A stretch of DNA of 40,781 bases from a virus. Within the stretch, counting starts at the first letter, position 1, and each line of letters begins with the position of its first letter. The notes under the pieces are model-generated. The model did not search any database and had not been told where the DNA came from. It saw only the letters and a program-made list of their open reading frames with translations. The translations under genes and the position numbers were made by a program. Below, one piece after another: positions 7,141 to 40,781 of the stretch. The DNA lies in UHGV virus genome UHGV-0177491, one strand, 5' to 3'.

Positions 7141-9837
7141 CTATTCCACAACATCATCTTCTATCAATTCAGCCTTATTTAGTTGTTCCTTAAGCTTATT
7201 CCATGCAGAATCCTCAGGCATCTGTACTCGCACAGAAACGAATTGATTAGCAGGAATGTCGATCGGGTCACCGTTCGAAACACCAGGTATGTCGTTACGT
7301 GCAAAAACGGGCGAGTTATCATGAGTGCGGTGAAACGTTTTCACCAACACAGATCCATCTTGGTTAACAACATAATCCAGCCAGATGAGCGGCTGCTTGT
7401 TTCGGTCCTGCGGTATTTCAAATCCACCATCAATCCCACCCCATGAAGCATCTGCATTCAGACCTACGCAACCCTCAATCAGATATTCACCCAATGCCAG
7501 CCGTGTGACGGTTACCCCATCTGATTCGCGATTTGTTTCACTACTACCGTCTGAGAAAATCTTCACAACCGGAGAGGCTTTTTTGATGAAACCACTTGAA
7601 TCGACGGTCGTGTTCAGCGACGACCATGCCTCAGCCCAGCCTGCGTTACCTGCGCGAATAGCATCGCCTGCGTAGCGGAAGAACAGTTTTGATGTTGTGG
7701 ACATGAATATCTGCAACACACGGTTTTTTGCATATCCTGACTCCCATAATGCTCCGTTACCTGTTCCTTCTGGCTGCCAGTTTGTCTTCCCACCTGCTTC
7801 TCCTATACTTACACCAGTAGACCAGTCTCCAGCAAATTCTGGAAGATTTGGTGAGTTAGGTGAGCGAATTGATACATCAACCAGACCAGGGGATCCGAGA
7901 ATCGACATGCTGCGGGAGGACACCTTAGTAAAAGAGTTGTACCCGCCGTTTTTGGAAATCCTTCCTGTATAATTATTAGCCCTGTTGGTTCCATTAACTG
8001 TAATTTCCCAGGTATCGCCGTTGATGAAGTCGATCTGCAATATGCAGTATGCTGGCAGTGTCATCTGTCCTGGCGCAGATGGCCCACCTTCAAACAGTGG
8101 CATATCCTGTTCAAGATATGTCACATATCTACCTGCATCTGTATTCCGCAAATAGTCACAAATAGCTTGTGCCGATGTAAATAGCGCAATACCATCAGCC
8201 GGGTTTACAGGGTGACGGCCAGCGTTAATCACCCTTCCGCGAGGGTTAAATAACTGTGATGCGGCATTGGATAGCGGACTCATGTCTACTGTTCCAGGTT
8301 CATTAGATGGACAGTTAGCGCGAATGATGTTTAAAGTCCTATAATTTGATCCGCCCCCATTGCCATAGCGAATAGACTGTAGAAGATACAATTCCTCAGA
8401 GCCAGAAATATCACAAGACTGCACCCCCTCATTTTCAGTGGAGTAAACACTCTTCCCTGAATAACTATCCCAGTATGTTTTGAAATCTGCAGGTGACAGC
8501 AGGTACTGACCTAATTCTGAACCAGAATGGCTGTACTCAATATAACCCTGCAACCCTGCGAAAGTATTTCCAGATCCCGCCGTGGTAGATGCACCAATAC
8601 CAGCAAATATCCGTTGAGAACCAAGAGCGACACCCTGCCGTTTTGGTTTACCGGCTCCGCGACCTCCAACATTTGCATCAACCGTAATAGTCCCCATTGG
8701 ACTATAAGATCCTTCTATAAGGCTGTTAATATCCAGTGTGTTAAAGATATTGGATACACCTGTCTCAACATCAAAAATTTTCGGCCAACCCATGTCCGCG
8801 TTTTCGTATAGCAGGGTATTACCAAAACCACTGAACTGATATCGCACTCCAAGTTTGGGTGATTCCGTGAAGTTTGTGATCTGCGTTTTATCAGCTAGCG
8901 TGCGCGGGTCTCCGATAGGGTAAATTCTGATAGTGCGGGATGGGCTGTACGGCAGTAGAATATAGCGCTGCCCTGCTTTTCTGTAAACGTGGATGCCTTC
9001 TGGTGCACCAACGTTATTCGGAAAATGAAGACGTGTTACCAATGCTCCTGTTGCCCAGTCATGCACCGTAACCCATACCGATGCGGGGTTTAGCGTCTGC
9101 CAGCCGATGTATACCATTCCATCATTGCTGTCTATGTAAATCCCCTGAAATCCCATGGTCGTATAACCATACTGACCTTTAAGATCTGCGGTAATCTCAT
9201 TGTCTATGATGCTGAATTCTAATTTCCAGTTCAGCGGCCTACGCGTACCACTGACATGTCTGGAAATATGAGACAGGTAGCTTTTAACCCCGCCTGCGAT
9301 AATGTATCTATCTTTGATCTCAGTAACAATTCCAGTTGCAACTGGAGTGCATTTATAGACGCCGCCGTTTATTCTAATAAAATTGGTTCCTGTTAGATTA
9401 TCCCCAATGGCAACGTCTTTGCTACTATTCTTAAACGTCCCATTACCTAAGTCAGTAACAAGCAATGCCCCTTCTACATATTTCAATGACTGATCAGGGT
9501 CATACTTCAGCACATTAGGAAAATAGAACTGCTTAGCACCATATGCATCATAAACAGCCATAGAATGGCCTTGCACAGTTACGAACTTGGCTATTTGCCC
9601 GTTATATACCGGGTAACCAGCAGCGTTAATGATGATTGGTTGCGAAACAGGAACGTGAGAACCGTCTTCATTCTCAACATAAACCTGAATCCGGTTTTCA
9701 GGATTTACCGGGTCAGTGTCAATTTTACCGATATAAATTCTGCCATTGGCATTTGCTTTAAACGAGCGAGCTAAAGTAAATAAGTTACTTGGTTGTGAAA
9801 CGACAACGTTGTATGATTGATTTGGCATAATAAACAT
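7141..9837 (-). CDS. Tailspike protein: P22-type head-binding domain plus unrecognised receptor-binding region
   Basis: N-terminal about 110 aa ([54 protein letters not shown]...[13 protein letters not shown]...NVLKYDPDQ) matches the P22 gp9 head-binding domain as recalled. The remaining about 780 aa are not recognised. Confidence 0.85.
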
Positions 9838-9850
9838 TCCGGAGAAAATA

Positions 9851-10354
9851 ATGAGTAAGAGACGTCACGAGGTAGTAACTCGGGAGCGCCTTATGGAGGT
9901 TCTAGTTTACAATAAAGAAACAGGAATTTTCACCTGGAAAAAGAAATTAAGCGCCAGAGGCGCTGTTGGTAAAGCTGCTGGCACAATCACTCCTTGTGGG
10001 TATAACGCAATTAGTATTGATGGCGTAAGATATTTTGCACATAGACTTGCCTGGCTGTATGTATATGGCGAATGGCCAAAACAAGAGATTGACCACATTG
10101 ATAGAAACAGAAGAAATAACGCAATCTCAAACCTTAGAGATGTTAGCAGGGTCGTAAATGCGTTAAATGTCGGACCTCGAAATAGCAATACTGGAATCAA
10201 GGGGGTAACTTTCTGTCAAGCCAGAAATCAATGGCAAGCTCAGATACATCTCTCAGGTAAAAACATAACTCTTGGGAGATTCAACACCATTGATGAGGCA
10301 GCTATAGCTTATAAGGCAGCAAACATGGTTGCTGACCATCTGTTGGGGCTGTAA
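9851..10354 (+). CDS. HNH homing-type endonuclease with AP2-like DNA-binding domain
   Basis: HNH motif region [22 protein letters not shown]-terminal [43 protein letters not shown] resembles AP2 domains of phage HNH endonucleases. Divergent from the tailspike start, about 13 bp apart. Confidence 0.8.
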
Positions 10355-10482: not shown

Positions 10483-10764
10483 TCAATCGACAGGAAACGC
10501 CGTGAAATTTAGCAGGTGTTGTAGTGCCTTAACGCCTTCAGAATTGTAACGGAACGCCTCTACCTGTTTGCTGGAGTGCGACGATTTATCCAGAAAGAAC
10601 TTCCCGTACCGCTCAGTTTTGAGGTTGTTTGCGTTAGCAATGCGACCAATCTTGTTGGCTGTTACTCCAAGATTCTCTGCAACCTCCCTTGCTGAGTAGT
10701 AATGCTCTTCTATTGCCGGAAGAGGTATTCTAGCTAATGCGCCCTTCCTTCTTAAGACTGGCAA
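10483..10764 (-). pseudogene. Possible antirepressor (ant) 5' remnant downstream of arc
   Basis: 93-codon ORF with no in-frame ATG (track start is TTG overlapping arc). Sits where ant lies in P22 immI; the rest of that position is occupied by the opposite-strand HNH gene. Confidence 0.3.
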
Positions 10765-10888
10765 TTACTCTCTGATAAATCTCAGAGTTAACAGATCGAC
10801 CATTCTCTTCCGCCACCTTGCGTACCAAATCCAACACTTCTTTAGGCCACCGCAAATTGAACTGCGGCATCTTGCTCATTCCTTTCAT
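10730..10888 (-). CDS. arc: Arc repressor homolog (ribbon-helix-helix), 52 aa
   Basis: Translation MKGMSKMPQFNLRWPKEVLDLVRKVAEENGRSVNSEIYQRVIASLKKEGRIS is near-identical to P22 Arc as recalled; SD GAGGTG. Not in the ORF track (under 60 aa). Confidence 0.85.
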   Translation of the reverse strand: MKGMSKMPQFNLRWPKEVLDLVRKVAEENGRSVNSEIYQRVIASLKKEGRIS

Positions 10889-10904
10889 ATTCACCTCACA
10901 GCAC

Positions 10905-11105: not shown

Positions 11106-11762
11106 ATGAAAGTGCAGACTTTAGAGTTCCCATACGGTGAAGTCGAGTTCACCAGAGATGAGTATATCGATGCGTCAACACTAACCGTTCAAATGAACCG
11201 ATGGAGATTTGATAACGGTCTTCAACCAAGAAATCTTGCTCAGATACTGAAAACGGATGACTGCAAAGACTTCATGCGTGTTTGTGAAGAGGAGACTGGT
11301 ATTATTCCGTTAAAAACAACGAGAGGAAGGAATGGGAAAACGTGGCTAAGTCTCCATCTGGCGGTGTATGTCGCCGAGCAGTACAGCACTTATTTCCACT
11401 TTCTCGTCATTGATCGTTTTATCACCCAGAGACAGGTCGAGTTGCGAAACATTGGTGCGGCAAGTTTTGTGGAGCTTAACGCAGCAGTTAGTCGGATGCT
11501 TGAGCGTACAGAAGGTAGGATTGGTCATAGTGGTCATTTCATTCAGGTTGCAAAGGTGGTTAAGGAATCGATAGATATCCGTGAAGTTACCGGGTTTGAT
11601 ACCTGGGATTCTCAGGATGCAAAAACCAACCAGTTGCGCAGCGAGATACAGAAGTCTCTTGTTCAGGCTCTTGATATGGAGTTTGTCAACTCGTGGGATG
11701 AGCTGAAAGAGACGATACCGCGAGTTGTGCGTAAATGCGCTGAGAAGATTGCAAGAGCTTAA
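11106..11762 (+). CDS. KilA-N domain-like protein (218 aa)
   Basis: Segment KTTRGRNGKTWLSLHLAVYVAEQYSTYFHFLVIDRF fits the KilA-N/APSES-type pattern as recalled. Occupies the position where mnt/sieA lie in P22. Confidence 0.5.
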   Translation: MKVQTLEFPYGEVEFTRDEYIDASTLTVQMNRWRFDNGLQPRNLAQILKTDDCKDFMRVCEEETGIIPLKTTRGRNGKTWLSLHLAVYVAEQYSTYFHFLVIDRFITQRQVELRNIGAASFVELNAAVSRMLERTEGRIGHSGHFIQVAKVVKESIDIREVTGFDTWDSQDAKTNQLRSEIQKSLVQALDMEFVNSWDELKETIPRVVRKCAEKIARA

Positions 11763-11783
11763 AAAATGATGAGGGTTACCAAT

Positions 11784-12269
11784 ATGAAAAAGGCACTGTT
11801 AATTATCCCGTTTCTGCTGGTTGGATGTGCAAAAGTAAGTGACTATCAGGCAAATTGCGAACAACGCTATCAAAAGCTTAGCGATATGGCCACTTGCCTT
11901 GATGCCAGCGTGAAGAGCGACTCACGCATGGCGTCAGCACCAACACCTAAACTGTATGTCCTTGCTGCGAAGATGCTCGGGCAAGGTGTCGATGAAGGCA
12001 AGATAAGTAACGCGCAGGCAAGACTTGAGCTTCAGAATCTTTATGTTCAATTGCAAGCCCAAGAACAAGCCCAGCAAATAGCGCAAAGCCAGGCATTTCA
12101 GCAGGCTTTATTGAATTATCAGGCTTTAAACACAATGCAAGCGATCGAGCAAAAAGCCAGACAGCCTGTTATAACTCAACCTTACCCAACGCGTGTTGAC
12201 ACCTATACAAACTGCAATTCAGGGTTTGGAAATACAGTCACATGCAACAGTAGCAGTAACATCAGATAA
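11784..12269 (+). CDS. Lipoprotein (signal peptide with lipobox LLVGC), Gln-rich
   Basis: MKKALLIIPFLLVGC: type II signal peptide and lipobox. GAGGG SD upstream of ATG at 11784 (track ORF begins at 11766). No family recognised. Confidence 0.65.
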   Translation: MKKALLIIPFLLVGCAKVSDYQANCEQRYQKLSDMATCLDASVKSDSRMASAPTPKLYVLAAKMLGQGVDEGKISNAQARLELQNLYVQLQAQEQAQQIAQSQAFQQALLNYQALNTMQAIEQKARQPVITQPYPTRVDTYTNCNSGFGNTVTCNSSSNIR

Positions 12270-27556: not shown

Positions 27557-27840
27557 AATTATGACCCTGTGGAGTGGTTGCTTGATTAAGATGTCTTTCC
27601 ATCAGTCCGCCACCACAAAGAATCTTTTTTGCCATAAGGCAGGAGGTTCATCTTTCAGTGGCTGCCAGTGTTATTTCCCCACTTACTGGCTTGGGTTGTT
27701 TCGTGGTACTGCCGTTAACTGGTGGCGCACAGATTTAGTTAAATCCGTTCTCGCCTGAACTATCTTTTACATACCCGGATTGTGGGGATGTAAATCACGG
27801 TTTCATTATCAAGCCCACCAGTAGATGGGCTTTGGAATGG

Positions 27841-28359
27841 TCACTTTGGCAGTCCGGGGATCGATATTTGCGCCTGCTGCTCAAGCCTTTCGATTCTTGC
27901 TATGAGTTGCGGTTTTTTGATCCTGCCCCAGCGGTTCAGCAAGCGTCCTGACATACTGGCAACATCCTTTTCCTTCATGAACTCCAGCATTAACTCATTG
28001 TGCTCTCTTTGGTATGAGTGAGCCAACTCCATCAGCCTGTCACGCATCCAATTAAATGCTTTGATAAACGCCTCTTTGATGGCGGCAGCTTTTTTGCCGG
28101 TAAACGACATGATGATGTACATCGCGCCGTCTTTGGAAATTTCATATTCAACATACTGATTACCCTTGTGTTCATAGGTAACCCGCGAAAAGTTGCTGGT
28201 TAGAAATTCATCCGAACAGTCTAGCTTTTCGATTTTCTGAATGATGTGGTGATGCTGCTTGTCGAAGTAAGCTGCTACCTTGCGGGAGGTTGTGATCACG
28301 CGATTACCAGAAACAACCACCATGTCCCGGAAATCGAGATTAGCCAATTGATGATTCAT
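27841..28359 (-). CDS. rha: Rha-family phage regulatory protein
   Basis: N-terminal VITTSRKVAAYFDKQHHHIIQKIEKL motif typical of Rha; position after the lysis genes as in P22. ATG at 28359 (track begins at a GTG at 28395). Confidence 0.6.
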   Translation of the reverse strand: MNHQLANLDFRDMVVVSGNRVITTSRKVAAYFDKQHHHIIQKIEKLDCSDEFLTSNFSRVTYEHKGNQYVEYEISKDGAMYIIMSFTGKKAAAIKEAFIKAFNWMRDRLMELAHSYQREHNELMLEFMKEKDVASMSGRLLNRWGRIKKPQLIARIERLEQQAQISIPGLPK

Positions 28360-28559
28360 AGCGTCTTTACCTTTTAGAAAGTGAGCCTGTCTCACAGAAA
28401 AGCCGCCCGAGAGAGGTCGCCACCTATAACGGCATTTCTCAGGCTCGCTTACTGAAAGGCTCTCGTTAATATGCGCGTGAGATGCGCTGTGAAATTCAGA
28501 TGTAAAAAAAGCCCCGCATCGCGAGGCTCATTAAATGGACTTTGTGATTTGCAAAAAAA

Positions 28560-30063: not shown

Positions 30064-30570
30064 TTATGCTACATGTTTAATTTTCTCTACACGTTTCCGG
30101 TTTTTAAACGCACTATCCAGAACCGGGTAAATCATAAACAACGAGGCATTAAGGATTTCGTCAACTTCCCGTCGACAGGTTGCGAGCGATGGTTTTTGAA
30201 TGCGCCCGCCGCCCCGGCATAACATCTTGCGAGGTCTTGCGACGCGATGATAGTAAGATGCAATGGCGTGTTTGGAAGATCCATGAGCGTAGTAGCTGAG
30301 GAGGATGCCAAAGGCTTTCTTGTCAATGTACATGACGGAATCGACGACCTGAGAAATCAACATTCCATCATCATCATTACACATTGGCCTTGTCATAACC
30401 CTTCCCGGCTCTACGCTCTCCATGAGCTTCGCTATTACGCTGCTCATGCGCTTTTCCAGACGACCTGAATAAACCCATGCGCCCCACAGTTCAAGCCATC
30501 CATTCAGCCACTCATGCTGATCTTTTGTGAGGTTTAGTTCTCTTATGCTCATTCCATATGCCTCCATCAT
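30064..30570 (-). CDS. Q-like late-gene antiterminator
   Basis: Assigned by position (last early gene, immediately upstream of the promoter/terminator pair and lysis cassette) and size. Alternative start at 30552 with a GGAGG SD. Confidence 0.5.
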   Translation of the reverse strand: MMEAYGMSIRELNLTKDQHEWLNGWLELWGAWVYSGRLEKRMSSVIAKLMESVEPGRVMTRPMCNDDDGMLISQVVDSVMYIDKKAFGILLSYYAHGSSKHAIASYYHRVARPRKMLCRGGGRIQKPSLATCRREVDEILNASLFMIYPVLDSAFKNRKRVEKIKHVA

Positions 30571-30579
30571 TTTTGAATC

Positions 30580-30741
30580 TTAAGCGATTCTTCTCAAGCG
30601 AATTACGATTCTTGCGACACCCCACCATTCAGCATCAGACAACATCTCTGATGGTTTAAATGCGTCTGGGAATTGCTGTGGAATGTATCTGGTGAATTTA
30701 GTCTCTGTCCTCACAGGTGCTTTCTTCTTTCGCTTGCTCAT
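30580..30741 (-). CDS. Hypothetical small basic protein (53 aa)
   Basis: ATG at 30741 forms an ATGA overlap with the stop of the upstream antirepressor-like gene. Not in the ORF track. Confidence 0.35.
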   Translation of the reverse strand: MSKRKKKAPVRTETKFTRYIPQQFPDAFKPSEMLSDAEWWGVARIVIRLRRIA

Positions 30742-31427
30742 ATCAACCCCTCATCAGTCAGTTTGCCGACAATCCACATCTCCCCTTCGGCGTAGAACAT
30801 CGCCTGAGAGTGTCCATTATTAGTCTCGCGCATGATGCCGTAGCCTTTGTCGATAAACCATTGCTGGAAGACGCGCCCACGCTTAACTGAACGATTGTAT
30901 ACCCCTAATTGCTCAAGCTGTTTATTCAGCCACACGGCGGATTGCCCGAACTTCTGCGCCACCTGCGACGCGTTATAAAGATTGTTGCGCTCAACGATGC
31001 GGTCGTAAACCTCGGCTTTAGGACTCATTTCCTTGTTCTCCAGTGCAAGGCGCTCTTTCTCTTCCTCTGCTACCACCAGCGCCTTGAGCGCCTCAAGATA
31101 AGTTTGGGGGACAGGAAATGCCGGTTTACTTTCTTGTTCTTCCAGCTCTTGCCAGCGATTAATTATTTTCATACGCAGAGCAGCGCTGTACCCAGCTACA
31201 AGGCAGAGAGATTCTTCCTTGTTCAACAAGTAGACTTTATCTTTGACGGCATGCCCTAAGTTATTAATTCTCTCGACAAATCCAATTTTGGATTGCTCAG
31301 AGATTCCTAACTCTGACAACATAACTCTTATATCTCTGCACACATGCCCATGCTGTTTACCTGTCAGTTCCGCAATCTCACGGCTGGACATGGTTTGCAC
31401 TTCTGCAGCGTTAATTAAACTGCTCAT
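30738..31427 (-). CDS. Antirepressor-like protein, paralog of 2541..3212
   Basis: N-terminal MSSREIAELTGKQHGHVCRDI motif; C-terminal about 95 aa nearly identical to the plus-strand paralog. ATG at 31427 with a purine-rich SD (track ORF extends to 31472). Confidence 0.7.
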   Translation of the reverse strand: MSSLINAAEVQTMSSREIAELTGKQHGHVCRDIRVMLSELGISEQSKIGFVERINNLGHAVKDKVYLLNKEESLCLVAGYSAALRMKIINRWQELEEQESKPAFPVPQTYLEALKALVVAEEEKERLALENKEMSPKAEVYDRIVERNNLYNASQVAQKFGQSAVWLNKQLEQLGVYNRSVKRGRVFQQWFIDKGYGIMRETNNGHSQAMFYAEGEMWIVGKLTDEGLI

Positions 31428-31505
31428 ACATTCCTCTCTCTTGTTGGTGTAACTGTATTTAACTTCCAACATTCATATCGTTCAAATCAGGTTCTTTATC
31501 GTCAC

Positions 31506-32135: not shown

Positions 32136-32422
32136 GACTTAATCTTCCCCTCCCTCAGCAGTATCGCCTGCGTCCTGATCACGCCTTCGAGGTGGTAAAG
32201 TCTGGCGTCTTTGTTGTCGAGATTATGGGTGCGTCGGTCGATCTCCGCGTGGCAGTCACTACAAGCCCATGCACCGATCAGGTCGTCAGGCTTCATTCCC
32301 GTTCCGCAAATTCCAGCCATCCGGTAATGTGCCAGAACTGTAGTTTCAGGATTACCATTGCATACGCCGTAAATACGTACCTGGCATTCTCTGCCGCGTG
32401 CTTCTTTGCGTAGGTTAGCCAT
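32132..32422 (-). CDS. DUF1364-family (YbcO-like) protein
   Basis: Cys/His-rich 96-aa protein immediately upstream of rusA, as in the DLP12 ybcO-rusA arrangement. Confidence 0.6.
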   Translation of the reverse strand: MANLRKEARGRECQVRIYGVCNGNPETTVLAHYRMAGICGTGMKPDDLIGAWACSDCHAEIDRRTHNLDNKDARLYHLEGVIRTQAILLREGKIKS

Positions 32423-33192
32423 TAAGCAGCCTCCCCTGTTACTTTCAGCATTCCGTTATCGAGCAGCTTTCTGGTCAGCCACTGTTGACCACGCCCGGTG
32501 ATTTTTGTGGTGAACGATATCTGTATTCCGTGATTTGTGTTGACCGCTGTTTCTTTCACTGTGAAATAGCCGCGCTCCATATATTCCTGCATTGGCACAT
32601 TGCGCCGGGAACCTGAAGCAATAAGGATTTTGTGATCACGCATCCACGCAAACAGTTTGTTTGGACCAGTACCGACAACCTTTGCAAAGTTTCCAATCAA
32701 AATTCCGCTGGCCTCGCCAACGCGATCGGCAAACTCAACTTTAGGTGCTGCGAGAGCAAGCTGCTGTTCCAACTTCACCTTCTGCTCATACTCATTAGCC
32801 CATGCTCTGGCAGCCTCTGCCGGGTTGGAGAAGTCAGGCAGTTGTAATTGCTGGCTCACTTTGTTGCGGAAATAGTTCCTCACCAACTCTCGCTGTACGC
32901 GCCACGCTGTCTCATCACGTAGTGTCTTTACCAGCATCAGATAGCCGGATTCTGTGAAAACCCTTAAGCCATTTGGTGAAATTTTCATCGACGGGTAGGC
33001 CGTCTGTTGCGTAAAATCAATAAGATACGTATCTTCTCCGTCTATAAAATATTTCGCGTTTCTCGCATAACCATCTTTGATAGTGGTTACTGGAACCCCG
33101 TGAATATCAGCAATCATTTGATACGTAACAACACGCTCACCATTAAACTCAATCGGCACGATTTCTGCGTTGGCAATAATTACGGCATTCAT
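32422..33192 (-). CDS. Antirepressor-like protein (ORF6N N-terminal domain plus Ant-like C-terminal region)
   Basis: N-terminal EFNGERVVTYQMIADIHGV...GLRVFTESGYLMLVK (ORF6N-like); central PDFSNPAEAARAWANEYEQK shared with the 2541..3212 protein. Confidence 0.65.
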   Translation of the reverse strand: MNAVIIANAEIVPIEFNGERVVTYQMIADIHGVPVTTIKDGYARNAKYFIDGEDTYLIDFTQQTAYPSMKISPNGLRVFTESGYLMLVKTLRDETAWRVQRELVRNYFRNKVSQQLQLPDFSNPAEAARAWANEYEQKVKLEQQLALAAPKVEFADRVGEASGILIGNFAKVVGTGPNKLFAWMRDHKILIASGSRRNVPMQEYMERGYFTVKETAVNTNHGIQISFTTKITGRGQQWLTRKLLDNGMLKVTGEAA

Positions 33193-33443
33193 GCAACACC
33201 TCCTTCAACGACAATACTGTCTCGCTTACCTTGTTCGCCTTCGAAGACGTAGAAATCACGCTTCCCGGTAATAACACCTAAATCATTGATTATGTTAGTG
33301 TGCTGCAATGCAGGAGGCTTGATAACGCCACGTTTCACCAATCTATCTATGGATACTTTTACATTGCTATGGCGGCTTTCTACCAGTTCGGCAATTTCGA
33401 TACTGGTCATCTTAACGGAAGAGAAACAAATTAAATTACTCAT
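33189..33443 (-). CDS. Small Rha-type N-terminal-domain protein
   Basis: MTSIEIAELVESRHSNVKVSI motif; ATGA-coupled to its neighbours. Confidence 0.45.
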   Translation of the reverse strand: MSNLICFSSVKMTSIEIAELVESRHSNVKVSIDRLVKRGVIKPPALQHTNIINDLGVITGKRDFYVFEGEQGKRDSIVVEGGVA

Positions 33444-33474
33444 TGCTATTCTCCGGTTTGCAAATTGTATTCAC

Positions 33475-33942
33475 TTAAACGCGAATGCGCACAAACTTAC
33501 AACCTAACGCCGATTTTATCTCTTCCTCGCGAATGCGATCCGCGTCCATATGCTGAGGCGCAAAATGTTGTTCCTCGTCTATTTCATAGGCGATATTGTT
33601 TACAGGATCATAGCCATCTATGCGGTATTTATCTAAAACCGGATATTGCCTTATTAATTTAACTCCTTGTAATTGTTCGATGGTGGTTAATGCTATTGTC
33701 TCAGCACATCTATTTAATGCTATTCTCTGATGCTTAAACACGTTAGCAACATCAGCATCAACAACAAAAACCTCTCGCTTAACTTTGAATCCTAGATTAT
33801 TTTCATAATATTCATATTTAATATCGTGCTTTATCCCGTTTTTTATTATGGTACGTTTCACATTGTCATGACGCTTACCCACCAACTCAGCGATTTCAAT
33901 GCTTGTCATTTTGATGGCATTGCCATTTATTAACTCATTCAT
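33475..33942 (-). CDS. Rha-type DNA-binding domain fused to a putative Vsr/DUF559-like endonuclease domain
   Basis: N-terminal MTSIEIAELVGKRHDNVKR; C-terminal AYEIDEEQHF...DADRIREEEIKSALGCKFVRIRV resembles a PD-(D/E)xK Vsr-like nuclease signature. Confidence 0.45.
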   Translation of the reverse strand: MNELINGNAIKMTSIEIAELVGKRHDNVKRTIIKNGIKHDIKYEYYENNLGFKVKREVFVVDADVANVFKHQRIALNRCAETIALTTIEQLQGVKLIRQYPVLDKYRIDGYDPVNNIAYEIDEEQHFAPQHMDADRIREEEIKSALGCKFVRIRV

Positions 33943-35126: not shown

Positions 35127-35569
35127 GCAGCCCTCCCTTTTCGTTGTGACCATTCATACTCTCGCCTGGAGTCATCACTCCACCGCACGTTGCGCTCTGA
35201 GCCGAACCAGAACATGATTTCGATAAGCTCAGTCATGCTGACCTTTCGCATTTTGCTGGTACGCACGCCAAGCATGACAACGCCACCGTCGATACCAGGA
35301 ACGCTTCGTTGCTCCAGTTTTTTGGTCTTAAGCCACAGGGCAGTGAACAGATCTTTCCAGTCCTCCGGCGCAAGTCTCTTTCCATGCCAAAGCACCTGAC
35401 GTGATACGTCCTGCAATAACGCCCACATAAGTCGGTTTTGAGGATTGCTCCGCTTTGGTTCTTTAACGTGGACTTCGTGAGGTGACTTGTCGTCGATGGG
35501 AAGTGAGAGTATTGCGTCTATGGCGTTATTTCTGATTGCTTCGTTGCGAAGCATGTATATTTGCCTCAC
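35123..35569 (-). CDS. ninB: NinB-like recombination protein
   Basis: NPQNRLMWALLQDVSRQVLWHG...WSDDSRREYEW matches lambda NinB as recalled; AAGGAGG SD 7 nt before GTG at 35569. Confidence 0.9.
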   Translation of the reverse strand: MRQIYMLRNEAIRNNAIDAILSLPIDDKSPHEVHVKEPKRSNPQNRLMWALLQDVSRQVLWHGKRLAPEDWKDLFTALWLKTKKLEQRSVPGIDGGVVMLGVRTSKMRKVSMTELIEIMFWFGSERNVRWSDDSRREYEWSQRKGRAA

Positions 35570-35700
35570 CCTTAAACCTCCTTAATCGCATTCTGACGAG
35601 ATTTTGCATCTAGACACCCGATTACATACCTGCTGTGTGTTTATCTCGCTACAGGCTCATCTAGGCGCCTTAAAATCGATTTTTGTTGTTTTGGTTGTGT

Positions 35701-35761: not shown

Positions 35762-38668
35762 TTAATACTCCGTCACGTTTTCCTGTCGCCACGCCTCGTC
35801 ATATTCCGATTTCGGCATATTGGCGATGTAGCTATATGGCGATCCTGATTCAAGTTGCAGGAACTGGTGCGATTGCTCGTCAAGGAACAACGAGACACCA
35901 CCTTCCCAACCTTCGCCGTTACGTTGTTTTTCAAGCATCAAAACAGATGCCGGAGATGCCAGTAGCTGTTCGTCCTTCTCTGTCATCTTTTCACCACTCT
36001 GAACTCTCTGTAACGCTCTCTCGCGAGCCTTGTTACGCCAGATGATGAAAAGGTTGTCTGTCAGGTCTGTTATCGCGCCAGAGCCTTTTACGTCCATTTT
36101 CCCGGTTGGTTTTTCTTCGCTGTCTCCTTTTCGCGAGTGAGTAACGAGAATGACGTGGGAGTTTGTTTTGTTTTTGAAGTCGCAAATCGAGTCAACAAAC
36201 GCCTTCTGCCCGTTATAGTCATCGTCACCTATGCCGCATTTCATCAGGCTGTCGATGATGAATAACTGGATGCCGTATCGGCGGCGAGCGTAGTCGAATA
36301 TTTCGATCAGCCTGTCGGCTTTCGCCGTTCCGGTCAGGCCAAACACCCAAAGTCTTTCGTCATAAAATTTAAATGCAGAGTCAATTTCCAGCACTGGCGG
36401 CATCTTGCAGCACGTCGCCTGACGGGTAAGGCGCTTAAGGAGAATACCAGGCTTCAGCTCAAGTGACGCGATGCACGTCTTCACACCCTGACGCATTGCC
36501 TCAAGTGCCATATGCCCGACAACCTCGGTGTTATGCGTCGCCACATATCCCCTGGTTACATACAGGTGGCGAGGGTGATCGACCATAATACACAAGCATT
36601 CTGCATTGCCTATTTTTTCAACATTCCTGACGAATACCCCACAGCCCTCGAATCGATGCGCAGTTAATCTGCCATTGAGTCGTGGTGAACGGATGGCATC
36701 CCTGATTTCTCTTGTCAGTCTGATTCTTGCCTCGTATGAATCCATCCCATGCCGCTTATCGCCCTTGTATGTGTATGTCACGCCAGTTTTAACTCGCGTC
36801 CGGCATGACCCGCCGAGTGAGTTAACCAGTTGAACAACCCCATTGAGCAGTTCTTCACTTGCTGAGGAAAAAACAAGCGTTCCATCCTTCTCGACATACC
36901 CATCCGTTTCAAGCAGACCACACAGCATGCCTATACGCGTTGATTTATTTGCAGAAAAAAACACACGAGGGATGAATTTGTTTTTTGCTGTGCACCCCAT
37001 TAGTCCATAACCTCGCAGGGTCTCCATGAGTGGATTTACCTGACCACGCGCCGTTGATATCAGCCAGTCCTTACCATCTCCAGAGAAGTTGTAATCAGGC
37101 AGTTCAGCCTTCATACGCTCGATCATGTATGGCTCGACGTTTGAAAACTTCACGCTCCCATTGCTAAGACTACCATCCCCGAGAAGGGAGCCGATAACCC
37201 ATGCTAATGGCTCTGAGTGGTCGCCAAAGTCACCAGTTATTTCAGGAATCCTAACGCCATTTTTGTGCCTCTTCGTTTCACTCAACCGTTTCAGCTCGAA
37301 GGTGTCTATCACGCGGCGCTTCTCGCCTTTCGTGAATCCACGACTAGTGACCTCCCATAGGTGATCGCCTGCGCAATCAACATAACGACCATCTTCAAAT
37401 GTGACTCGGTAAACATCTCTAACACCCTGCGGGAATATCCCGGTGACAGTTGACGGATTGCCGTCAACTGACGCCACCTGATCGCCAATTTTTACATCCC
37501 CGTGAGTAGTCCATTCACCATTAGCGAGCAGAATTGGTTCATCAAGTGGACAGGCTTTTCCGTGACCGTTCACACCATTGACCAGCGTCAACTCGGCCTC
37601 ACGGAACTGGAATTTATCTGCCAGAGATTCCCACGGTGGATTAAACAGATACTGCTGCTTGCCGTAGAAAGCGTTGATAGTGTCCTGGTAAAACTCTCGC
37701 GCGCTGTAGAGTTCTTCAGGATCGAAGTAGGATGCCGTGCCGATGTACTGCCAGATTTCATCCTCGGTAACACCGTTCATCAGGCATTCGTTGATGTCTT
37801 TGTACGGCAGAGTAACAAGACGGCAACGATGTTCACCGAGTCGGCTTGCGATTTCCCTTGCGGCTTCACGACCAACATCATCAACGTCCATCGAGATGAA
37901 TATTTCCTCAAACCTGTCGAGGTTGTGATACTCAAACTCAATCCACTGTTGCTTAGCGCCTTTCCCGCCACCAAACGGCACGGATAACGCCGAGATGCCG
38001 TATTGCGCATAGCTCATACAATCAATTTCGCCTTCGCAAAGTACAACCGCCCTCACGCCAGCGTCCAGAGCCTGCCATCCGAACAGACAAGGTTCGCAAT
38101 CACCTTCTGCCATAATGACTTTCTTCCCGTCCGGGCGCTCAGTGCTGATTCGCTTGACCTGCAACAACTCACCATCGCGTTTGTACGGAAGCACCAGTGC
38201 ATCAAGTTCTCGTTCTCCATCCCACACCTTGCCGCTGACAACCTCGTAGCGCTTTACGACTTCTGGCGATATGCCACGCGATTGCAGGTACTCAAGATGG
38301 GATTCTGTTCTGGTAACGTAGCGGGCGATTTTCTTGCGGTCAGGTCTGGAGAATTTCTTCTCACGTTTGGCATCGAAATGGTGATCGTCATCCTTGATTC
38401 CGAGAAATGCTTTCGCTTCCTGCATAGCCTGATGCAGGTTAATTCCACGACATGCCATCCACAAATCAAGCATGTCACCGCCGTCTCCCTCAGCGAAATC
38501 AGCCCATTTTTTCTTGCCGCTAAGGTTGACCTTAAGGCTGTTTCCCTTGTCACCGTTGACGTTACCGGCAACCCACTCATGCCCCTCTTTCTTGCCGTTT
38601 GGCAACAGGTGCGGAGCCACCCTGTCAACCTGCGCCCAAAGCAGGTCGCTGAGTTCACTTGGCCTCAT
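35762..38668 (-). CDS. Primase-helicase (Toprim primase domain plus DnaB/SF4-like helicase domain) carrying an intein
   Basis: Toprim motif VVLCEGEIDCMSY; helicase motifs GVNGHGK (Walker A), LFIIDSL, VTHSRK, KGSGAITDLTDNLFIIWR. A 341-aa insertion interrupts the Walker A. Confidence 0.85.
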   Translation of the reverse strand: MRPSELSDLLWAQVDRVAPHLLPNGKKEGHEWVAGNVNGDKGNSLKVNLSGKKKWADFAEGDGGDMLDLWMACRGINLHQAMQEAKAFLGIKDDDHHFDAKREKKFSRPDRKKIARYVTRTESHLEYLQSRGISPEVVKRYEVVSGKVWDGERELDALVLPYKRDGELLQVKRISTERPDGKKVIMAEGDCEPCLFGWQALDAGVRAVVLCEGEIDCMSYAQYGISALSVPFGGGKGAKQQWIEFEYHNLDRFEEIFISMDVDDVGREAAREIASRLGEHRCRLVTLPYKDINECLMNGVTEDEIWQYIGTASYFDPEELYSAREFYQDTINAFYGKQQYLFNPPWESLADKFQFREAELTLVNGVNGHGKACPLDEPILLANGEWTTHGDVKIGDQVASVDGNPSTVTGIFPQGVRDVYRVTFEDGRYVDCAGDHLWEVTSRGFTKGEKRRVIDTFELKRLSETKRHKNGVRIPEITGDFGDHSEPLAWVIGSLLGDGSLSNGSVKFSNVEPYMIERMKAELPDYNFSGDGKDWLISTARGQVNPLMETLRGYGLMGCTAKNKFIPRVFFSANKSTRIGMLCGLLETDGYVEKDGTLVFSSASEELLNGVVQLVNSLGGSCRTRVKTGVTYTYKGDKRHGMDSYEARIRLTREIRDAIRSPRLNGRLTAHRFEGCGVFVRNVEKIGNAECLCIMVDHPRHLYVTRGYVATHNTEVVGHMALEAMRQGVKTCIASLELKPGILLKRLTRQATCCKMPPVLEIDSAFKFYDERLWVFGLTGTAKADRLIEIFDYARRRYGIQLFIIDSLMKCGIGDDDYNGQKAFVDSICDFKNKTNSHVILVTHSRKGDSEEKPTGKMDVKGSGAITDLTDNLFIIWRNKARERALQRVQSGEKMTEKDEQLLASPASVLMLEKQRNGEGWEGGVSLFLDEQSHQFLQLESGSPYSYIANMPKSEYDEAWRQENVTEY
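36530..37552 (-). mobile_element. Intein with LAGLIDADG homing-endonuclease domain inserted in the helicase P-loop
   Basis: Insertion begins with Cys after GVNGHGKA, contains LAWVIGSLLGDGS and RIGMLCGLLETDGYV (two LAGLIDADG-type motifs), ends VATHN followed by Thr. Residues about 373-713 of the host protein. Confidence 0.7.
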
Positions 38669-38775: not shown

Positions 38776-39546
38776 TCACCTGTCGAAAAACACGTAGCCA
38801 GTTTTCGATACGGTGATTGCGGATGATGGTTTGGATTGTGGTTGAATAGTTTCTGGCTTCTCGTCGTTCCAGCGTTGACCGTTCAGGTAGCTCGATGGTA
38901 ACAACCTGTCGAATCCGAACTGCTTACCACTCCTGCATGCGATGTCTTCTGCCAGCATCGTGGCAAACTCGCTTGCCGTACCCCTTGTAGTTTTACGCCA
39001 TTCCCTGAACTGTGTTCTGAATGCTGAAGCTGCGTTTTTCTTCCCGGCTTTCCGCATGCCTGCACACCAGAATATTTCCTCGAATGCCTTGTCGGTTTCT
39101 TCGTGACGGTCAGGAGTTTTTTCACACTCTGTTCGGACATGTTCGAACATAATGTTTTTAGGTTCATTGACTGGTTCAAAAGAGTGACTGGTTCTGGGTG
39201 CAGCTCCTGCACCACCCCCTAGTGAATCTCCTGCACCAGGGTGGTGAATCTCCTGCACTACCCCTAGTGAATCTCCTGCACCCCCAAGCCGAAGAATATA
39301 GATATTACTTGAGTTGCCTTTTTCACCTTTTCGGGTGACTTTTTTTAGCAAGCCAGCCTCACAAAGAGCCTCAATATGGTTAATCACGGAGCGTTTGCTA
39401 ATCTCGCACTGGTCAGCGATATGCTGATATGAAGGCCAGCATTCGCCATTGTCATTGGCGTTATCGGCAAGTTTAAGCAGAACCAGTTTTCTGAGCGGGT
39501 TTCCAACTTTGGCTCCCATTGCCTTCACCATCAGAATCATACTCAT
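38776..39546 (-). CDS. Iteron-binding replication initiator (lambda O-like)
   Basis: N-terminal wHTH-like region (KLVLLKLADNANDNGECWPSYQHIADQCEISKRSV); iteron repeats lie inside the coding sequence; position after cro and the cII remnant. Confidence 0.75.
   Translation of the reverse strand: MSMILMVKAMGAKVGNPLRKLVLLKLADNANDNGECWPSYQHIADQCEISKRSVINHIEALCEAGLLKKVTRKGEKGNSSNIYILRLGGAGDSLGVVQEIHHPGAGDSLGGGAGAAPRTSHSFEPVNEPKNIMFEHVRTECEKTPDRHEETDKAFEEIFWCAGMRKAGKKNAASAFRTQFREWRKTTRGTASEFATMLAEDIACRSGKQFGFDRLLPSSYLNGQRWNDEKPETIQPQSKPSSAITVSKTGYVFFDR
39204..39290. repeat. Intragenic iterons (about four degenerate 22-bp repeats) forming the replication origin
   Basis: Units CTCCTGCACC...GTGAATC repeated with variation inside the initiator gene; related to the perfect repeats at the window ends. 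Confidence 0.7.
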
Positions 39547-39580: not shown

Positions 39581-39835
39581 TTATTTAAGCATCAGGCGAG
39601 CAAACTTCGGCTGGTTACTTCCTGGCTCCAAATTCAAAACCCCAGTCTTTTCCAGTGCTAAAATGTGACCAATTACTGTCGATCTGCTAATATCGCACTG
39701 ATAAGCGAGATCTTGATATGAAAACCAGCATTCGCCATTGTCATTGGCGTTATCGGCAAGTTTAAGCAGAATCAGTTTTCTTCGCGGGTTCCCAACCTTA
39801 GTTCTCATTGCTTTCTCAATCAGAATCATACTCAT
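39581..39835 (-). CDS. Paralog of the initiator N-terminal domain (84 aa)
   Basis: MSMILIEKAMRTKVGNPRRKLILLKLADNANDNGECWFSYQDLAYQCDISRSTV is about 70 percent identical to the first about 60 aa of the downstream initiator. Confidence 0.55.
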   Translation of the reverse strand: MSMILIEKAMRTKVGNPRRKLILLKLADNANDNGECWFSYQDLAYQCDISRSTVIGHILALEKTGVLNLEPGSNQPKFARLMLK

Positions 39836-39862: not shown

Positions 39863-39988
39863 CTATTCATGACAGCCAATCATCTTTGCCAGACCGCGCT
39901 GGGTAAGCGTTGACAGGTTGATGAGTAAATCAGTTTCTGCGCGATCAATTTCTCGCTGTGTTGGCTTGCTGTAACTTGCTTGTGTCAT
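39863..39988 (-). pseudogene. Truncated cII-like ORF (41 codons)
   Basis: MTQASYSKPTQREIDRAETDLLINLSTLTQRGLAKMIGCHE resembles the N-terminal part of lambda CII in pattern and position but stops before a complete HTH. Weak call. Confidence 0.3.
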
Positions 39989-40128: not shown

Positions 40129-40344
40129 TTAAGCGGCTTTGTGTTCCGGCGGGAACACGTCATCAAGACTTACATTTGCGCCTAACTTGTTCAGGTAAGC
40201 AACGAGAGCACGGCATGTTTTAAGATCTGGCATGCGACGACCACTTTCCCAATGACCGACAGCCGACTGTGTGCATCCAACTGCCTTAGCAAGTATTGTT
40301 TGACTGATGCTCACTGACTTTCGATATTTCTTAAGGTTGTTCAT
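40129..40344 (-). CDS. Cro-like HTH (XRE-family) regulator
   Basis: 71 aa with HTH QTILAKAVGCTQSAVGHWESG; first gene of the minus-strand early operon. Confidence 0.65.
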   Translation of the reverse strand: MNNLKKYRKSVSISQTILAKAVGCTQSAVGHWESGRRMPDLKTCRALVAYLNKLGANVSLDDVFPPEHKAA

Positions 40345-40373
40345 ATTTCCTTCCCAACATTGGTAACCACGCT

Positions 40374-40405
40374 ATTATAGTACATCTAGTGCGTTTTTAA
40401 TGCAA
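40374..40405 (-). promoter_or_regulatory. PR-like promoter for the cro-like gene
   Basis: Perfect TATAAT on the minus strand (plus 40374-40379) about 25 nt upstream of the start; the -35 is imperfect. Confidence 0.45.
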
Positions 40406-40576
40406 GCAAAAATACCACACTCCAAATCCTGGTGAACCAACCCCAAACCTCCTGAATCGCATTCTGACGCAATATTTACGCCCACACGTACATTTTAATG
40501 TCTGACAGTTGTTTATCTCTCTACAGCGCTTCCTATGGCGTTTAAACGCCATTGACGTAACTAATGGTTGCCGAGA

Positions 40577-40737
40577 CCGGCTTTCCGCATGCCTGCACAC
40601 CAGAATATTTCCTCGAATGCCTTGTCGGTTTCTTCGTGACGGTCAGGAGTTTTTTCACACTCTGTTCGGACATGTTCGAACATAATGTTTTTAGGTTCAT
40701 TGACTGGTTCAAAAGAGTGACTGGTTCTGGGTGCAGC
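40577..40737 (-). pseudogene. Duplicated internal fragment of the replication initiator gene
   Basis: About 160 bp near-identical to 39044-39203; both overlapping track ORFs (40542..40748, 40561..40770) reproduce initiator-gene translations. Confidence 0.7.
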
Positions 40738-40781
40738 TCCTGCACCACCCTGGTGAATCTCCTGCACCACCCTGGTGAATC
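40738..40781. repeat. Iteron array: two perfect 22-bp units continuing to the window end
   Basis: TCCTGCACCACCCTGGTGAATC twice, identical to units at 1-66; joined end to start the array would hold at least five perfect units. Confidence 0.85.

Follow-up and report, generated by a model that had tools for sequence, protein, structure and literature searches.

Loss of lysogeny by phages of temperate descent is already well known, both from laboratory clear and virulent mutants and from natural cases such as the Klebsiella phage phiKp_30. The laboratory mutants (lambda cI deletions, lambda vir and P22 c2/vir), and mycobacteriophage D29 as compared with L5, combine a temperate backbone with loss of repressor function and are obligately lytic. 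In phiKp_30 (LC768498.2), a Lederbergvirus isolated from sewage, cI has been removed by a simple internal deletion that leaves approximately 20 N-terminal codons. UAB_Phi20 is a virulent P22-like phage that retains c2 and int (PMC4837284). The 40,781-nucleotide stretch considered here, UHGV virus genome UHGV-0177491 (referred to at its full length as the window), is, judging from its sequence, very probably the whole circular genome, in circularly permuted form, of a P22-like lambdoid podovirus of approximately 40.76-40.78 kb that was formerly temperate and is now obligately lytic. In this genome the cI repressor gene and its terminator, which would be expected between the divergent early promoters PL and PR, have been replaced joint to joint by roughly 0.5 kb of non-coding DNA derived from pieces of the replication module, including an ectopic copy of the origin of replication (ori). 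Relative to the laboratory mutants and D29, this state is natural, being present in about 10 metagenome samples, and it is the outcome of several hits (cI, cII and ant, with no int/xis or mnt detected), with origin DNA in the repressor slot. No description of origin DNA, or of an ori copy, in a repressor slot or immunity region was found in the literature.

Comparable immunity regions are present in E. coli prophages of the 933W/VT2-Sakai type, such as prophage L004 (NZ_CM128543.1), which match the window in the order and homology of cII-cro-OR and of OL/PL-nutL-N (87-95% nucleotide identity). These prophages encode a LexA-family cI of 169-231 amino acids and a full cII of 98 amino acids, whereas the window has neither, and the window operators are a distinct allele to which complete E. 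coli genomes come no closer than approximately 83-90%. phiKp_30 resembles the window in being P22-like, in its 933W-type cro/OR/OL-PL, in its P protein of 968 amino acids, in a related O initiator and in the absence of cI, but its cI deletion is a simple internal one with no ori insert, and its O iterons are of a different (GGGCAGCTCCTGCCCC) type. The loss of cI in phiKp_30 is independent of the event in the window. Both ends of the phiKp_30 GenBank record fall within the iterons of its O gene, where the assembly broke at the repeat.

The lambda ori consists of four iterons and a 38-bp A+T-rich segment (PMC3349717). Its unwinding requires negative supercoiling, with three iterons being enough (PMC7466680), and transcriptional activation of the lambda ori is thought to work via DNA topology (PMC3985674). 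The lambda iterons (ITN1-4) and the six-iteron origins of Stx phages, like the ectopic copy, form a phased array of approximately 22 bp followed by an unwinding stretch (PMC3349717, PMC7466680), and the 4-6 ectopic iterons fall within the natural range of lambdoid origins. The ectopic copy differs from these origins in lying outside the O frame, between PL and PR, in being non-coding and in having homogenised perfect units. Additional initiator-binding arrays that compete for O have been described on ori-lambda plasmid fragments, which act as origin decoys and give an ‘inhibition phenotype’ (PMC3349717, PMC4488673). These decoys act in trans, in multicopy, and harm the phage, whereas the window array is part of the phage genome itself (in cis), and this phage is abundant in metagenomes.

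The early control region of the window, on either side of the insert, is composed of the following features.

146 to 250, plus strand: OL/PL region kept from a 933W-type immunity region, 95% identical to prophage L004 from 52 bp past the cI stop codon
218 to 246, plus strand: PL, TTGACT-17-TACTAT (-35 at 218-223, -10 at 241-246), located by promoter scan
293 to 338, plus strand: nutL, with boxA GCTCTTTAA at 293-301 and a boxB-like element GGCTGAAAAGCC at 325-338, conserved with VT2-Sakai and L004
40070 to 40119, minus strand: nutR, with boxA-like and boxB-like elements (CGCTGAAAAGCG), kept in all variants
40129 to 40344, minus strand: cro, 71 amino acids, Pfam HTH_3 (E=2e-12), 82% amino acid identity to L004 Cro
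40345 to 40412, minus strand: OR/PR, with the OR3-equivalent half deleted according to alignment with L004, VT2-Sakai and phiKp_30
40405 to 40400 (-35) and 40382 to 40377 (-10), minus strand: PR, TTGCAT-17 nucleotides-TACTAT, read by eye

PR was missed by the promoter scan because its -35 is weak. From PR to PL across the circular join the distance is approximately 594 bp, in agreement with the figure of about 600 bp given in a preliminary description made from the sequence alone. In prophage L004 the same cII-cro-OR and OL/PL-nutL-N flanks enclose a 231-amino-acid LexA-family cI. Homology to L004 stops at 40412, within the OR3-equivalent and approximately 15 bp short of the L004 cI start codon, and restarts within the T-tract of the terminator of cI, at position 146, so that 514 bp (40413-40781 plus 1-145) stand in for 761 bp of cI and terminator. 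As a prophage with the same flanks carries cI between them, the replacement can be recognised as a precise one. Vir-type operator mutations were considered and dropped, as mutated operators and a different immunity allele are not distinguishable and VT2-Sakai, too, has half-site variants such as GTGC. In GTDB genomes only distant relatives of Cro were found (at most 48% identity), and a temperate parent with the same operators was not found among them.

The interval had been described as lacking a LexA-fold repressor, and homology searches bear this out. With P22 C2, Int and Xis, Sf6 Int and its xis-like gene, and two 933W-type cI proteins as queries, the best tblastn match on the circularised window had E=0.15, in a run that had no difficulty in detecting arc (90% identity), cIII, kil, cro and what is left of cII. 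Pfam scans of approximately 40 open reading frames (ORFs) and of every PL-PR frame of at least 30 amino acids gave no Peptidase_S24, integrase, resolvase or recombinase, and Cro was the sole HTH_3 protein in these scans. The same tblastn and Pfam searches bear out the noted absence of an integrase or excisionase, and the content of the slot in which such genes are usually located agrees with it and with the noted lack of an attachment (att)-like site.

7079 to 7140, no strand assigned: 62-bp spacer separating the ends of the early-left operon and the tailspike gene, with a hairpin (GGTGGCGTAATGCCACC) as its sole content; the site of attP-int-xis in P22-like phages

In Sf6, which is otherwise collinear, the slot between tailspike and early-left operon holds oac, int, attP and xis. 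Neither tRNA genes nor a tRNA-like att target were found in the window, and the joint of the int deletion could not be defined, as no close relative spans 6731-7600. The elements expected of a temperate lambdoid phage are thus missing in three respects, namely the repressor, Int/Xis/attP and a functional cII.

Public assemblies were searched for exact matches to Cro and to O', a truncated O-like protein encoded next to cII, yielding 7 and 11 contigs, respectively, from about 10 samples; a DNA scan of JGI metagenomes added one more record of the ERZ1034973 contig. Three contigs run from N through the interval to cro across 40781/1: L007 (MEGAHIT k119, 40,877 bp), L008 (SPAdes, 18,159 bp) and L013 (SPAdes, 16,685 bp). 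L007 shows no mismatches to the circularised window over 12.2 kb and differs from it by one 22-bp unit and by 1 nucleotide in an A-run; its MEGAHIT header carries flag 3, which we take to denote a stand-alone loop. The circle length calculated from MEGAHIT (40877-119) and from SPAdes (40813-55, with k=55 assumed) is in both cases 40758, which equals the 40781 of the window minus 22 minus 1. Moreover, the two window ends make up one collinear piece of the O gene, consisting of the end of the N-domain, the iterons and then the middle. Since the junction is spanned, the circle lengths agree and the ends form this collinear piece, the window can be regarded as the full circle, and the number of perfect units, 4 or 5, is the only uncertain point in it.

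An artefact or an excerpt has to be considered here, in which the contig broke at the repeat and cI (and int) of the real molecule would lie either between a pair of iteron arrays or in the flanks. The window starts and ends within the same perfect tandem repeat, contigs L009 and L024 also end in that repeat, and an exact repeat of 174 bp is longer than common k-mer sizes. Nevertheless, the three MEGAHIT k119 and SPAdes contigs cross the array from N to cro with two identical outer joints, the ends of the window join into a single collinear stretch of the O gene, both circle predictions come to 40758 bp, and the int slot is internal to the window, yet empty. The artefact account is therefore largely refuted and barely credible. 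The preliminary description had read the window as circular, and the passage through 40781/1 in L007, L008 and L013 upholds this; the window is likewise no excerpt of a longer molecule, since the junction is read through from N to cro and the lengths agree at 40758 bp.

Read in the direction of PR transcription, from 145 to 40413, the insert is composed of the following parts.

79 to 145, minus strand: 67-bp fragment of a different O allele, from where its N-terminal domain ends, at the right end of the insert; positional equivalent of resident 39283-39350, strongly diverged
1 to 78, minus strand: right part of the ectopic iteron array, with 3 perfect 22-bp units and a partial one
40730 to 40781, minus strand: left part of the ectopic iteron array, with one degenerate core as in the resident ori and perfect units, continuing into 1-78
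40577 to 40750, minus strand: 174-bp copy of resident O/ori 39044-39217, 100% identity
40450 to 40576, minus strand: 127-bp element that is located between O and P in phiKp_30, 76% identity to LC768498.2 32971-33095
40438 to 40476, minus strand: Shine-Dalgarno leader resembling the ninB leader, 39 nucleotides, 82% identity to 35567-35605
40413 to 40437, no strand assigned: left joint, approximately 25 bp between the leader and OR, next to the end of L004 homology at 40412

The sequence of 79-145 and its joint are identical in L007, L008 and L013. An O-gene fragment had been recognised in the preliminary description at a length of 160 bp, and the fragment is real but extends over 174 bp (40577-40750); it contains the first iteron, a relatively A+T-rich stretch, a small palindrome (hairpin 40663-40682) and the O linker. 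Similarly, the ninB leader copy described there is present, not at 28 bp but as 39 nucleotides at 82% identity, and it forms the end of the 127-bp element. The only match to that element among 50,697 phage records is phiKp_30, and the element shows no significant RNA fold (z=-0.8) and no convincing promoter. Within it, at 40535-40552, there is a perfect 18-bp palindrome (ATGGCGTTTAAACGCCAT) that is unique in the genome and is possibly a protein-binding site. The insert can be considered non-coding because the mechanical ORF across it changes between assemblies (139, 76 or 83 amino acids, or none). The one Rfam match in the insert was to CsrB (40730-40781 plus 1-78, minus strand; L007 5525-5604) and was below threshold, with 23.7 bits against a gathering threshold of 71 and E=6e-4, reflecting CAGGAG every 22 nucleotides. 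The resident O mRNA contains this motif as well, and the match is probably a coincidence of the iteron sequence. For the parent allele of the 79-145 flank and of O', protein searches gave only the identical protein, and tblastn gave at most 69% identity. The suggestion that O' and 79-145 are two halves of one lost O gene is unsupported, as the two pieces overlap in the O alignment yet differ.

The array is a perfect 22-bp tandem repeat of TCCTGCACCACCCTGGTGAATC that occupies 40738-40781 and 1-66, followed by a partial unit as far as 78. It has 5 perfect units if the window ends join directly, which was matched in 0 of 100 shuffles, and 4 in another assembly, and 4-5 is taken as the count; the repeat reported earlier is thus confirmed, and its figure of at least five perfect iterons holds only for the direct join. 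Of the 17-bp core GGTGCAGGAGATTCACC, the resident ori (39197-39282) has four copies and the ectopic array six (counting the unit that spans the join; 5 of them perfect), with none elsewhere, and the ectopic core is the same as the second resident iteron over the first 16 of 17 bp. In terms of phasing, where at least three to four iterons would be expected of such an origin, six cores with 22-bp spacing extend from 40730 to 75, with 4-5 in other assemblies. The 130 bp past the last ectopic iteron are 100% identical to the resident ori, and the A+T content just past this iteron is 60-67%, compared with 52% genome-wide, so that an A+T-rich unwinding segment may be said to be present only in the sense of equalling the resident origin. 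By analogy with lambda, the iterons and the adjacent segment would together provide all the elements of a minimal lambdoid origin. Embedding in the O coding sequence, which is typical of lambdoid origins, is absent here, with no conserved reading frame across the ectopic copy.

The cro-O'-O layout is common to the approximately 10 metagenome samples, with cI in none of them, and the full PL-PR interval is spanned in three. The region from cro to O is 99.8-100% identical among four contigs. L013 diverges from the window by approximately 0.35-0.8% (about 0.5%), with additional insertions and deletions in the nin region, and both outer joints are the same. The layout therefore appears, from these sequences, to be inherited and is not a one-off. 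The arrays vary between assemblies: L007 has 4 perfect units, L008 has 4 units of mixed type and L013 has 5, three of which match resident iterons; no spanning assembly has fewer than 4 cores. The stretch identical to the resident ori is 238 bp long in L013, which, together with the array variation, points to slippage and gene conversion between the ori copies; noise in short-read assembly over the 174-bp repeat may also be a source of the array variation. In exact-match scans the two insert joints had no matches in IMG/VR, and the joint between the O fragment and the 127-bp element had none in 185,579 GTDB species-representative bacterial genomes and was found in one further contig in JGI metagenomes. 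The junction layout was not found in complete E. coli genomes, PLSDB plasmids or phage records. L013 also carries a Ser-to-Gly change in the Cro recognition helix (CTQSAV to CTQGAV; L013 1297-1400, around window 40255) and two single-nucleotide polymorphisms in the PR spacer/operator (L013 approximately 1260-1290, around window 40385-40395), a possible co-variation of Cro and operator. The regions of approximately 33410-33844 and 27718-28349, where Rha-like genes are located (33475-33942 and 27841-28395), fall between aligned L013 blocks, suggesting indel or mosaic differences within the lineage.

Decay of the lysogeny functions extends beyond cI, as shown by three further features.

39863 to 39988, minus strand: cII remnant, 41 codons followed by a stop, fused to the O' leader; matches Pfam Phage_CII profile positions 1-37 of 91
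39581 to 39835, minus strand: O', an 84-amino-acid ORF with the winged-helix N-domain only, of a further O allele; Pfam HTH_36 (E=1.7e-10)
10483 to 10894, minus strand: decayed immI, with intact arc (10730-10894) followed by the C-terminal 76 amino acids only of the antirepressor

The reduction of cII to 41 codons, which had been noted previously, is supported by the translation and by Pfam, full-length relatives having 98 amino acids. O' matches positions 1-71 of PHROG replication initiators, shows 80% nucleotide identity to the N-terminus of the resident O gene and has the same sequence in 11 contigs. Its ORF, flanked by the cII stump and O, is preceded by its own Shine-Dalgarno sequence and encodes a recognition helix different from that of O. 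From its domain content, O' could be an initiator antagonist or a regulator. The earlier view that cIII, arc, N/nut and Q are intact is sustained by Pfam and tblastn. The losses of lysogeny genes that it listed also stand, but the picture of an intact arc was incomplete, since immI has decayed as well, with ant truncated and mnt not detected. The Arc protein has 90% identity to P22 Arc, and the ant remnant corresponds to phrog_1726 positions 181-259 of 264. No mnt-specific homolog was detected by tblastn, with P22 Mnt aligning only to the arc ORF (44% identity). Between arc and tailspike, an HNH/AP2 homing-endonuclease-like gene (9851-10354, plus strand) lies beside the ant remnant (10483-10764, minus strand), and it may have caused the ant truncation. 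Several independent hits of this kind fit a lineage that gave up lysogeny some time ago.

The reading of the window as a temperate P22-like phage that has lost its lysogeny module is thus supported, no repressor or integrase homolog having been found and the window being no excerpt, and the predicted loss of lysogeny is very likely. During infection, PL and PR would fire without any phage repressor, Cro would later damp both promoters through the kept operators, and N and Q would drive the lytic cascade, so that lysogeny would be neither established nor maintained. O produced from the PR operon is likely to bind the ectopic array as well as the resident ori, as predicted from the match of the ectopic core to the second resident iteron over 16 of 17 bp, which would result in two O-somes per genome. 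The ectopic copy lies 140-330 bp behind two strong divergent promoters, whose transcription would be expected to leave the DNA negatively supercoiled. As this is the condition that the lambda ori needs to unwind, the ectopic ori is a plausible second origin, although firing at a meaningful rate, argued by analogy, is possible but rather doubtful. With respect to its history, the insert most likely represents a recombination scar, in which an O-P segment was captured upon the loss of cI and then tolerated, with gene conversion keeping it similar to the resident ori. A tolerated scar that still binds O is considered the most likely reading. The phage probably does not need the ectopic ori, given that phiKp_30 has a plain cI deletion without an ori insert.

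Several observations weigh against this account. In lambda the A+T-rich segment is roughly 80% A+T, and the 60-67% found after the ectopic iterons is below that value. The composition of the array differs in every assembly, which indicates either weak constraint or assembly noise. With 99.1-100% identity among the variants sampled, little can be concluded about selection from conservation, and for the 384 bp of the insert outside the array the absence of changes lacks statistical significance. Lambda replication is inhibited by ectopic ori copies supplied in trans (PMC4488673, PMC3349717), and by analogy the second array could be a cost and not an origin. Finally, a small or novel repressor could, formally, have escaped homology searches.

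The ectopic ori might instead have been selected as a second origin that fires from the divergently transcribed PL-PR spacer, allowing faster theta replication or replication independent of PR read-through. This would be compatible with the complete set of ori elements, with O sites that are more numerous and better than those of the resident ori, with the position behind two divergent promoters, with the retention of at least 4 cores in every spanning assembly despite turnover of the array, with the layout being kept in a variant diverged by about 0.5%, and with topology-based activation of the lambda ori (PMC3985674, PMC7466680). An adaptive origin nevertheless appears unlikely, as phiKp_30 does without both cI and an ori insert, no other phage record has the layout, conservation within so young a clade is uninformative and the array is hypervariable. 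The broader proposal that cI has been functionally replaced by a replication element, either a promoter-activated second origin or, with O', a new circuit for the timing of early transcription and replication, and is thus adaptive and not a scar, is more unlikely still.

The array could also serve as an initiator sink or regulator that titrates O or binds O', thereby tuning the timing of the theta-to-sigma switch, dampening PL/PR or hampering co-infecting phages of the same O type. Iteron-bearing lambda ori fragments in trans do block theta replication, for which titration or handcuffing has been proposed (PMC3349717, PMC4488673), and the PR operon contains the intact 84-amino-acid O' ORF, which has a DNA-binding domain only and shows no differences among 11 contigs. 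However, the lambda effect needed oop transcription and a multicopy plasmid, and the recognition helix of O', a protein whose synthesis and binding to the array are hypothetical, differs from that of O; this explanation is quite improbable. It is also very improbable that the phage is still temperate or persistent, either through an unrecognised repressor or in a lambda dv-like plasmid carrier state with Cro-autoregulated replication. Arc, cIII and several Rha/ANT/ORF6N regulators are present and a novel repressor could escape homology searches, but Pfam found no S24 repressor, second HTH_3 protein, partition genes or integration genes, the joint between the O fragment and the 127-bp element was not found in the 185,579 bacterial species genomes, nor the interval in PLSDB or complete E. 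coli genomes, and N and Q would still drive lysis.

This genome provides a clean and multiply sampled case of a lambdoid, P22-like phage passing from temperate to lytic by several independent losses or truncations, which bears on the origin of virulent phages and on how the safety of ‘temperate-looking’ phages for therapy is judged. The origin copy between PL and PR is unusual. If the ectopic ori does fire, it would offer a ready-made natural test of the activation of lambdoid origins by transcription-driven supercoiling; if it is only a scar, it shows the reshuffling of replication-module DNA at mosaic boundaries. Its interest would be greater if the ectopic origin or the O' protein were functional.

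The remainder of the window is that of a P22-like lambdoid genome in reverse orientation, as seen from the ORF layout, Pfam and synteny, with the following main features.

146 to 7078, plus strand: PL-N early-left operon
437 to 709, plus strand: N antiterminator, intact, Pfam N_peptide (E=3e-32)
1860 to 1985, plus strand: cIII, 41 amino acids, intact, 77% identity to Sf6 cIII, with a Lambda_CIII Pfam match on the identical gene in L007
7141 to 9837, minus strand: tailspike, Pfam Head_binding (P22 head-binding domain)
30064 to 30570, minus strand: Q, intact
35762 to 38668, minus strand: P-type primase/helicase of 968 amino acids with an intein (Toprim_2, AAA_25, Hom_end_hint, LAGLIDADG_3)
38776 to 39546, minus strand: resident O initiator gene, which encloses the resident ori (39197-39282) and the C-terminal half of which matches phi24B O

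The kil gene, found by tblastn, is intact. The minus strand also carries P22-type ejection and head genes, an Sf6-type terminase, lysis genes and the nin region. Virion genes of Lederbergvirus type were identified by Pfam (P22_gp7, E=6e-130; Inj_translocase; an SLT-domain gp16-like protein; tailspike Head_binding; Sf6_terminase), and the early region has the lambdoid complement of divergent PL/PR with operators, cro, N with nutL/nutR, O-P, the nin region and Q. Sf6 is collinear with the window, with 85-95% nucleotide identity across many blocks, and no phage, plasmid or complete E. coli genome record matches more than a fraction of the window.

In the P protein, the intein comprises a Hint domain at approximately residues 379-424 and a LAGLIDADG domain at approximately residues 579-631, and the P proteins of phi24B and phiKp_30 are of the same length. 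Two plus-strand genes (11106-12269) occupy the position of mnt/sieA in P22. The ORF at 11106-11762, which at 218 amino acids is of the size of a repressor, was rejected as such, as it matches phrog_6095 (annotated ‘amidase’) and, weakly, KilA-N. The second encodes a 167-amino-acid protein of phrog_6067, of unknown function, with a hydrophobic, Cys-containing N-terminus. At least seven Rha/ANT(KilAC)/ORF6N antirepressor-like genes, an unusually large number, are distributed over 2104-3212, 4734-5399, 27841-28395, 30738-31472 and 32422-33942, and this set might aid the growth of a repressor-less phage on lysogens that make a matching repressor.

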